DNA from: Escherichia coli
GTDB taxonomy: Bacteria > Pseudomonadota > Gammaproteobacteria > Enterobacterales > Enterobacteriaceae
Length of the DNA stretch: 62,264 nucleotides
Assembly (NCBI RefSeq): GCF_003334305.1
Contig: NZ_QOWS01000027.1
Direction: 5' to 3' (one strand)
Shown: piece by piece, positions 346 to 1,209 of the stretch
How positions within the stretch are numbered: the stretch's first letter is position 1
How the letters are laid out: each line of letters starts with the position of its first letter
Notes under the pieces: model-generated
What the model was told of the DNA's origin: nothing
The model's input: only the letters and a program-made list of their open reading frames with translations
The model's database searches: none
Position numbers and translations under genes: made by a program

Positions 346-831
346 ACGCGCCAGAACAAGACTATGATAGCGTTGCCCTTATAGACGATCACATTATCGT
401 CCACTCCGACTTTGCGCAACTACAGTAGAGTGGTGTACTCCGCGGCTTTTTTGAGGATCTCAACTTCCATGTTTTTTTACCCAGCAAGAGCTGTAACTCT
501 TTTATTTTTTATAGCGGCAGCCAGTTCTGAGGCAGGAACAACATCCTCTCCGGCAGCAACAGCAGTGAGACTTCCTTCCTGGTATTGTTTTTTCCACTTA
601 AACAACAGACTGGGCTGAATACCATGCAAATGCACCACATGGGACACCGTCATGCCAGGCTCCGTTGTCTGCTGAGTAATGGCAATTTTTTTTCTGAGGA
701 GTTTTACGTTTACGAAGCTCCTGCCCCAGCAAAGTTCCAGTTATATCAAAATTAGAACTAGTGTTAGACATATATCCAAGCCTATCTCTTATTTTAAGAT
801 ACATCCACTGTCTGGCGTTTCAAGGGGCGGC

Positions 832-1209
832 TCAAGTTTTTTCAGACAGTTGAACTAGTATACCAATACATTCTTGTTCAGCATCAATGATACATGCTTG
901 GTATGTCGGAAAGAAAACAGATGCTTGTTTTACGATATATCCACAGTCATAATATTGATACCATTTCCAGCCTTTTTCCTGAATGTAGGAAATATGTAGA
1001 AAAAGTGGCAAGACTGATTCGTCTGAGTACCCCTGTTTTTTAGCATTTTTAATGCATAACAATTGCGAATTATATGCGTTATCTGATTGAGAAATAAGAT
1101 ATCCATTTTTCTCATGACAATACCACCTCCATTTATTGTCATCAGTTTTATAAAATTTCCATATTAATCTCTGATTGCCAGATATCTTATAAATCATAAT
1201 TTGCTCCAC
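832..1209 (-). CDS. Hypothetical protein (possibly DUF1508/YegP-like)
   Basis: 125-aa ORF in an AT-rich segment; KFYKTDDNKWRWY...NG motif loosely resembles YegP-type repeats; weak. Confidence 0.3.
   Translation of the reverse strand: MEQIMIYKISGNQRLIWKFYKTDDNKWRWYCHEKNGYLISQSDNAYNSQLLCIKNAKKQGYSDESVLPLFLHISYIQEKGWKWYQYYDCGYIVKQASVFFPTYQACIIDAEQECIGILVQLSEKT

Follow-up and report, generated by a model that had tools for sequence, protein, structure and literature searches.

The AT-rich stretch next to pgtP in this Escherichia coli DNA (contig NZ_QOWS01000027.1; by the window we mean the whole 62,264 nucleotides analysed) appears to hold the dead stump of an IS3-family element, at 436-828, and, at 832-1197 on the minus strand, a DUF1508-type gene that would be the distal cistron of the pgtP transcription unit. 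We give this reading as a whole a probability of roughly 0.7. As far as sequence comparison and structure prediction can place it, the 121-aa product is filed as a divergent member of the DUF1508/UPF0339 family, in a small subfamily that is invisible to Pfam. DUF1508/UPF0339 (YegP) proteins are widespread and their structures have been solved, but their function is not known; they have recently been noticed in stress-response and anti-phage contexts (bioRxiv 10.1101/2024.11.21.623966; PMC13373217; PMC12065111). The features on which our reading is based are collected in Table 1.

Table 1. Features of the AT-rich segment and its borders, in window coordinates
Feature	Position	Strand	Description
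Intrinsic terminator	312..340	+	12-bp stem and T-run; left border of the AT-rich segment
IS3-family (IS2/ISEc48-like) remnant	436..828	-	left end and ~310 nt of orfA (tnpA)
58-aa ORF	477..653	-	in-frame central part of the orfA pseudogene
68-aa ORF	598..804	-	IS left end, first ~28 orfA codons and out-of-frame tail
125-aa ORF	832..1209	-	GTG start
Protein-coding gene	832..1197	-	121 aa; RefSeq WP_000639468.1, 'hypothetical protein'; predicted divergent tandem DUF1508/UPF0339 (YegP-like) protein
DUF1508-like repeat 2	868..1005	-	residues ~65-110; strands 65-72, 76-83, 88-91 and helix 99-110 (AlphaFold); motif GWKWYQYYDCGYIVKQASVFFPTYQACIIDAEQ
DUF1508-like repeat 1	1027..1173	-	residues ~9-57; strands 9-17, 23-29, 34-37 and helix 45-54 (AlphaFold); motif IWKFYKTDDNKWRWYCHEKNGYLISQSDNAYNSQLLCIKNAKKQGY
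Shine-Dalgarno	1204..1207	-	GGAG, 6 nt upstream of ATG 1197
Intercistronic hairpin	1206..1236	-	CCUUCCCCAGGG-loop-CCCUGGGGAG.GG; -21.5 kcal/mol; between the pgtP stop and the small gene
pgtP	1240..2604	-	454 aa; phosphoglycerate/PEP:Pi antiporter; stop codon 1240-1242; RefSeq annotation agrees

The stretch 300-1300 recurs with 100% identity in many complete E. coli chromosomes. In 200-nt windows, GC content is 0.30-0.415 over 601-1200 versus about 0.46-0.51 on either side, and this dip, along with the RefSeq annotation of pgtP, bears out an earlier note that had described, from the letters alone, an AT-rich stretch with two minus-strand ORFs between a terminator and pgtP; both ORFs are in the ORF list at the places it gave. 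The terminator serves a plus-strand gene of the aldose-1-epimerase family that lies upstream and ends at 291. To the right of pgtP come pgtC-pgtB-pgtA, divergently transcribed. The pgtABCP genes are a known module of GI-pheV/PAI-type islands (PMC11537424), and the pgt locus also comes up in work on E. coli of phylogroup B2 and on Crohn's-disease-associated (AIEC) strains. We found pgtP in 446 of 5426 complete E. coli genomes and, counting separately, the ORF region in 446 of 5426. This distribution, the AT-richness, the IS remnants at the flanks and the membership in an island module all mark the segment as horizontally acquired, as the earlier note had considered possible. Searching positions 1-3000 for known RNA families gave two sub-threshold snoRNA-type chance matches and nothing more, and no sigma-54 promoter was found upstream of pgtP, in 2605-2960, at up to two mismatches.

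The left part of the segment is, judging from its sequence, an inactive IS remnant and not an active IS. Positions 436-828 share 85-93% nucleotide identity with the left end and orfA of intact IS3-family copies, of which a single E. coli genome can contain as many as 27. These relatives measure about 1.3 kb and have a 1208-nt joined CDS corresponding to a programmed-frameshift transposase. Of those ~1300 nt, about 390 are left here: orfA is frameshifted at least twice and cut off at ~436, and orfB and the right end are missing. PGAP annotates a transposase pseudogene at 435-744 ('frameshifted; incomplete; missing C-terminus'), and the three-frame translation of the minus strand at 420-830 recovers a single IS2 InsC-like protein text spread over the frames, which shifts first in an A8 run and a second time later. 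The likeness to IS2 InsC/OrfA and to ISEc48-like elements extends from the DNA of the left end and orfA to the translation, as the 58-aa ORF fits the NCBIfam profile of the IS2 repressor TnpA (NF006928) with an E-value of 1.7e-20 over profile positions 30-80 of 121. What is present is hence the mark of the IS3 family, an orfA with an HTH transposase N-terminus homologous to IS2 InsC; a complete IS3 element, with two terminal inverted repeats and orfA and orfB joined through a programmed frameshift, was not recovered, the match being confined to 436-828.

This remnant also accounts for the smaller of the two ORFs, which had been taken for an unassigned gene and turns out to be a reading-frame artefact in a truncated, frameshifted transposase pseudogene. 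Because it is made of the IS end, some 28 real orfA codons and an out-of-frame tail that begins after the frameshift in the A8 run (T8 on the plus strand, ~685-692), the 68-aa ORF is, by its composition, no gene and encodes nothing. It has no family match of its own, and its length lies within chance, since an ORF of at least 68 aa arose in 22% of first-order Markov simulations of the region 436-830. Immediately next to the IS end (~828) comes the stop codon with which the larger ORF terminates (832-834).

The larger ORF, at 832-1197 on the minus strand, is in our reading of the sequence data a real protein-coding gene. Simulating the local sequence of 820-1239 in the same way, we reached 125 aa in 0 of 3000 cases (mean longest ORF 51 aa, maximum 122), so that, compared with the 22% obtained for the 68-aa frame, only the larger ORF exceeds chance. 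Among 5.8 billion proteins, a search found only 16 relatives, and their sole sources are E. coli and metagenomes; versions that are truncated or IS-fused are common (P0009-P0016), and the C-terminal tails vary between alleles. Across nine aligned full-length or near-full-length sequences, 36 positions are invariant and both repeat cores are included. Among five alleles, pairwise dN/dS (Nei-Gojobori) is 0.10-0.35, with dS at or near saturation, which indicates that purifying selection acts on the 121-aa protein; there is no sign of overall positive selection. The larger ORF, which was to be called spurious if it had neither expression nor conserved homologs, thus proves to have such homologs, and under purifying selection. 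A literature search on the protein accession found nothing.

The most likely start of the gene is ATG 1197, which gives 121 aa, is the start annotated by PGAP and is preceded by a Shine-Dalgarno 6 nt upstream (Table 1); the arrangement is identical in UPEC 536. GTG 1209, from which the 125-aa version is read, lies within the Shine-Dalgarno and hairpin region and is for that reason the less probable choice. An in-frame ATG takes its place in three of the four other alleles (L006, L007 and L010), so ATG 1197 is the probable start and no more than that.

The assignment of the protein to DUF1508 was reached through intermediate sequences and the predicted fold, given that direct searches fail or are weak. 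Scanning the 125-aa and 121-aa proteins against Pfam PF07411 (DUF1508) with hmmscan gave no match even at E<=10. The NCBIfam model HVO_2922 (NF041908, UPF0339) matched residues 19-49 of the 125-aa version in the correct register, but below threshold (E 0.0027, 17.8 bits versus a cutoff of 90), and we treat this as a lead only. Comparing the family profile with PDB sequences gave only noise, and direct hhalign against an alignment of the YegP clade was not significant (E 0.19), though again in the correct register. The intermediates came from a phmmer search of 1.84 billion cluster representatives, which returned 63 proteins, with intermediates at E-values of 1e-10 to 1e-4 and matches covering residues 9-60. 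The remote proteins are single-domain (52-85 aa), two-domain (~105-140 aa) or long and multi-repeat, and follow the motif WEFYxDxxGxWRWR..NG.IVGxSxEGY....C..NA.R.GY. PF07411 was matched at E<=1e-3 by 8 of 16 and by 6 of 11 intermediates tested (best 4e-13). In hhalign, the family aligned with the intermediates over 108 columns spanning both repeats (probability 98.9%, E 1.5e-17), and the intermediates aligned in turn with the YegP clade (E 3.8e-5).

Structure prediction leads to the same family. The AlphaFold2 model (pLDDT 82, pTM 0.65) consists of two beta-beta-beta-alpha units, each corresponding to the ~50-residue fold unit of DUF1508, and the two repeats are mutually related at the sequence level (BLASTP E 2e-6). 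A Foldseek search of AFDB50 placed first the CFT073 ortholog (97% identity, 'uncharacterized') and, after the E. coli orthologs, nearly exclusively DUF1508, YegP and HVO_2922 proteins, at E-values of 5e-7 to 5e-4. In this database, 'DUF1508 domain-containing' is already the label of a truncated E. coli copy. The weak resemblance to YegP/DUF1508-type repeats that had been suspected for the larger ORF was therefore well founded, in that there are two predicted beta-beta-beta-alpha repeats and Pfam DUF1508 is attained by way of the intermediates.

The closest structural neighbors of the protein are members of YegP/UPF0339, including NMB1088 of Neisseria (3BID) and HVO_2922 of Haloferax (6Q2Z), and with YegP itself (PDB 2K8E) and SO_3888 of Shewanella (2K49) it shares the ~50-residue unit twice in tandem. 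Common to all are a small size, the lack of an evident N-terminal signal sequence and, in register, first strands rich in W and F, an 'NG' turn and a helix with a small or Cys residue. The protein of the window differs from YegP in that it is less than 20% identical to it, lacks the PF07411 match, and is richer in Cys and in aromatic residues (17%, with 5 W and 12 Y, versus 9% in YegP). Its gene is very AT-rich, sits on a mobile island and is fixed behind pgtP, whereas yegP is elsewhere a gene of the chromosomal core. With a mass of 14.4 kDa, the protein is basic (pI 8.2) and contains five Cys, with C27, C48, C85 and C102 conserved; a CxxC is found in repeat 2 of all alleles except those of the window and P0001, which both have Y82. 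Lacking an evident N-terminal signal sequence, it is presumably located in the cytoplasm.

A trait that the earlier note had overlooked is the fixed linkage of the gene to pgtP. In the window it is on the strand of pgtP, 42 nt behind it. Four further E. coli alleles (P0005, P0006, P0007 and P0008), with 58-71% protein identity to the window copy, each lie on the same strand 40-50 nt downstream of a 454-aa MFS pgtP, and the DNA beyond them varies, containing a SPATE autotransporter, AraC/PerC genes, another MFS gene or the end of the contig. Outside E. coli, we used PgtP to scan a single genome for each GTDB species, and ran the family HMMs against the 80 best loci, translated in six frames. 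A relative behind pgtP was found in 2 of these 80 species loci, in Edwardsiella anguillarum and E. piscicida, and also in E. tarda. It is a 63-aa protein (P0192/P0193; loci L039, L040 and L097) of the same domain type, encoded on the same strand 38-41 nt after pgtP, that matches the E. coli repeats with BLASTP E-values of 1e-8 and 8e-8 (42% identity to repeat 2 over 31 residues) and reads …FWRFY…GQWGWCVVA.TGYIV.HS..FF.RR..CLADAR.HGY…. These relatives have a dN/dS of 0.09-0.15 and are under purifying selection too. They differ from the E. coli gene in having a single domain instead of a tandem, and in being GC-rich and chromosomal; the Edwardsiella locus has no intercistronic hairpin, and its sole canonical terminator is placed after the small ORF and not after pgtP. 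Synteny with pgtP is hence conserved in five E. coli alleles and three Edwardsiella species. The other 78 of the 80 best species loci had no relative behind pgtP in this search, so the gene is accessory and not a core pgt gene; pgtP occurs without it in Salmonella, Citrobacter, Klebsiella, Serratia, Providencia, Yersinia and other species. We also considered a transporter linkage of the whole remote family, which is ruled out by the remote homologs P0020, P0063 and P0017, all in unrelated contexts away from pgtP.

The junction with pgtP has the anatomy of a shared transcript. The two genes are close and on the same strand, and consensus scans found no minus-strand promoter-like or terminator-like site in 1197-1330 of the window, nor any such coding-strand site in the pgtP-ORF interval of three other alleles. 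Between the genes lies a hairpin whose base includes, as paired nucleotides, the first two G of the Shine-Dalgarno GGAG. As a canonical intrinsic terminator it is ruled out, because it has no U-tract. A hairpin of 10-12 bp occurs at the equivalent place in all five E. coli alleles (z -2.2 to -4.5 versus shuffles), with compensating inner stems: CAGGG:CCCUG in the window, CGGAU:AUCCG in L004, CGGA:UCCG in L010 and CAGGGG:CCUCUG in L007. This conservation was established by folding each allele separately, as the 3' arm falls out of register at an indel in the MAFFT alignment. From the anatomy of the junction we infer a bicistronic pgtP-ORF transcript on which the hairpin would modulate the relative amounts of the two products through protection of the 3' end of pgtP and partial masking of the downstream Shine-Dalgarno. 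As a distal cistron with its own GGAG ribosome-binding site, the small gene would be expressed when PgtA/B/C switch on pgtP upon external 3-PG, 2-PG or PEP.

This picture has to be contrasted with that of a stand-alone stress gene of the YegP type, under its own regulation, that hitch-hikes at the edge of the pgt module without any link to pgtP. Such a gene would be in keeping with the description of DUF1508 proteins as stress-induced and with their many unrelated contexts, and also with the absence of the small gene from most pgtP-bearing species and its frequent truncation in E. coli. It would equally suit the different pace of divergence of the two neighbors, for dS in matched allele pairs is 0.4-1.5 for the ORF versus 0.04-0.3 for pgtP. 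However, a mere neighbor would hardly be expected to keep its position, strand and a spacing of 38-50 nt in five E. coli alleles and three Edwardsiella species, the more so as the downstream DNA differs among the five alleles while the placement behind pgtP is constant. The lack of a promoter-like site on the ORF strand, in the gap or at the 3' end of pgtP in the window, and the Edwardsiella terminator, located only after the small ORF, also speak against a unit of its own. We therefore consider the hitch-hiker unlikely and keep to the distal cistron.

Against the distal-cistron reading stands the step in divergence at the pgtP border. Between the window and L006, for example, pgtP has a dS of 0.043 with 98% amino-acid identity and the ORF a dS of 1.45 with 62%. 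Along the DNA, nucleotide identity is 97-100% through pgtP and 70-87% from ~1250 leftwards, and is lost at ~870-900, that is, within the last ~15-20 codons of the ORF, so that the C-terminal tails differ between alleles. By this profile, the ORF marks the margin of the conserved pgt module. Most simply, recombination between islands would homogenise the core of the module and seldom reach its edge. Alternatively, the step may reflect old allelic lineages kept by selection, and the faster divergence of the ORF could perhaps also stem from a loose tie to pgtP function.

What the protein does can be approached by analogy. YegP is described as stress-induced, and in this family single domains dimerize and tandems are pseudo-dimers (bioRxiv 10.1101/2024.11.21.623966); yegP-like genes are at times found after the DNA-damage regulators capK/capS (PMC13373217), and tandem DUF1508 has been likened to the single-strand nucleic-acid binders sPC4 and Whirly (PMC12065111). 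By comparison with other tandem DUF1508 proteins, the 121-aa protein would most likely be a presumably cytoplasmic, pseudo-dimeric binding module. Its role may be that of an accessory, of the stress type or binding nucleic acids or proteins, co-expressed with organophosphate uptake. For transport as such it should be dispensable, since it is missing from the pgtP loci of Salmonella, Citrobacter, Klebsiella and others.

A more specific role in the phosphoglycerate system is conceivable. The idea that this pgtP-linked protein tunes the activity of PgtP or PgtA/B, or binds imported PEP or phosphoglycerates, as a dedicated cytoplasmic component of uptake and sensing, is one that we regard as rather a long shot. 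Were it true, the fixed coupling to a known inducer would for the first time place the large DUF1508/YegP family in a defined physiological context, with an assay that is easy to run, and the divergence step at the pgtP border would represent old allelic lineages under selection. Taken as an outright rival to our reading, with the small protein serving the system as a dedicated partner (a regulator or adaptor in the cytoplasm that binds PgtP, PgtA/B or the imported PEP or phosphoglycerate), it becomes very unlikely: the pairing with pgtP is conserved under purifying selection in two distant enterobacterial lineages, which speaks for it, but Salmonella-type pgt loci and the 78 of 80 species loci do without the small gene, and the defence and phage family libraries gave no match hinting at such a partner (for the 121/125-aa protein, zero matches in PADLOC and, in PHROGs, only matches at E~0.09 of unknown function). 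As for the ORF being a spurious or decaying frame in AT-rich island junk without a functional protein, we give it next to no credit: there is indeed no direct Pfam match, the database family is tiny (16 proteins), the RefSeq name is 'hypothetical protein', truncated or IS-fused versions are common and the tails differ, yet chance in an equally AT-rich, stop-rich sequence never produced its length, dN/dS is low despite near-saturated dS, both repeat cores hold invariant positions and the confident predicted fold fits a known family.

The DUF1508/UPF0339 family and the pgtABCP island module were already known, and the IS3-family remnant and the rest of the content are ordinary for an island. The linkage to pgtP, the compensating hairpin and the divergence step are of modest interest and nothing categorically new; they offer a testable handle on the family. 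A divergent subfamily is hereby tied to a well-understood, inducible transporter operon in pathogenicity-type islands of extraintestinal and IBD-associated E. coli, and this linkage supplies a concrete condition, external 3-phosphoglycerate, under which expression or a phenotype can be sought. As for annotation, 'hypothetical protein' can be replaced by 'DUF1508-like, YegP family'; the 68-aa ORF is best disregarded.

The segment is poor in repeats: a search of 300-1300 found a single 12-nt inverted pair, located inside the larger ORF. In about 155 of the 446 pgtP-positive E. coli genomes, the ORF is reduced to its pgtP-proximal half (~55 codons). In the one shortened locus that we inspected, an IS66 remnant cuts the ORF, and pgtC is shortened too.

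Divergence changes abruptly at the pgtP border. When the window (870-1250, set against pgtP at 1240-2604) was compared with four other E. coli loci carrying divergent alleles (L004, L006, L007 and L010), dS for the same allele pairs was 0.04-0.3 in pgtP versus 0.4-1.5 in the small ORF. At the other end of the gene, homology between alleles stops within the final ~15-20 codons, and this is why the small-ORF alleles differ in their C-terminal tails. Within the second repeat of the 121-aa protein, all other alleles carry a CxxC motif (C82, C85) beside the invariant H68 and C102, whereas the window and the P0001 allele have a tyrosine at residue 82 (codon ~952-954). 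A putative metal site in repeat 2 would be incomplete in the Y82 allele. In its 5' portion, the small ORF also contains a 12-nt inverted repeat (window 1111-1145; CTCATGACAATA / TATTGTCATCAG, spacing 11 nt), which is probably due to chance.

The small ORF is frequently disrupted: in roughly 155 of the 446 pgtP-positive complete E. coli genomes it is cut to its first ~55 codons. In the sole truncated example that we inspected (L094, NZ_CP029242.1, 3584-6123), a remnant of IS66 TnpA adjoins the cut; pgtC is truncated too and pgtB and pgtA are missing, with pgtP intact. A metagenomic relative, P0009 (156 aa), is a fusion ORF in which residues 1-71 of the small protein are followed by IS66 transposase sequence (PF03050), and represents a further IS66 insertion in the small gene.

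The surroundings of pgtP differ in other species. In Citrobacter, Serratia silvae and Salmonella diarizonae (L012, L016, L019-L027, L032 and L034), the place held by the DUF1508-like gene in E. coli and Edwardsiella is occupied by a conserved 80-aa ORF, which lies 70-130 nt downstream of pgtP and converges with it from the other strand. The C-terminus of PgtP itself varies immediately upstream of the hairpin that separates pgtP from the small ORF: many tblastn matches end at residue 447, and the protein of the E. coli island has 454 aa, versus ~463 aa, with a later end, in most other Enterobacteriaceae loci, a figure that is a longest-ORF call with a provisional start codon (window 1240-1270 compared with L011-L038).

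Among relatives elsewhere, the best remote match of the small protein is P0017 (302 aa; E 8.8e-18), in which the repeats are joined by 'P.IPDSHIF' linkers. P0017, P0019 (1030 aa), P0023, P0026 and others are long proteins in which the same Cys-containing DUF1508-like unit recurs 4-10 times. P0063 (63 aa; locus L092, 1247-1438) is a relative with a single domain, like those of Edwardsiella. Its gene lies ~400 nt upstream of the carbon-starvation transporter gene cstA, on the same strand, and is another case of a small DUF1508-like gene adjoining a carbon-source transporter; after cstA come a small Sel_put gene and one of the cobW family.

As for the rest of the island, the window matches strain W2-5 at 98.8-99.7% as far as ~17.3 kb but is divergent beyond, and the match resumes at 32962-34458, in a tyrosine-recombinase segment.

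Features of the island (window ~7800-8700 and 7361-17327) as annotated in strain W2-5
Feature	Location
IS21 istA pseudogene	beyond pgtA
PapB/FocB-regulated chaperone-usher fimbrial operon	beyond the istA pseudogene
EAL-domain gene	with the fimbrial operon, beyond the istA pseudogene
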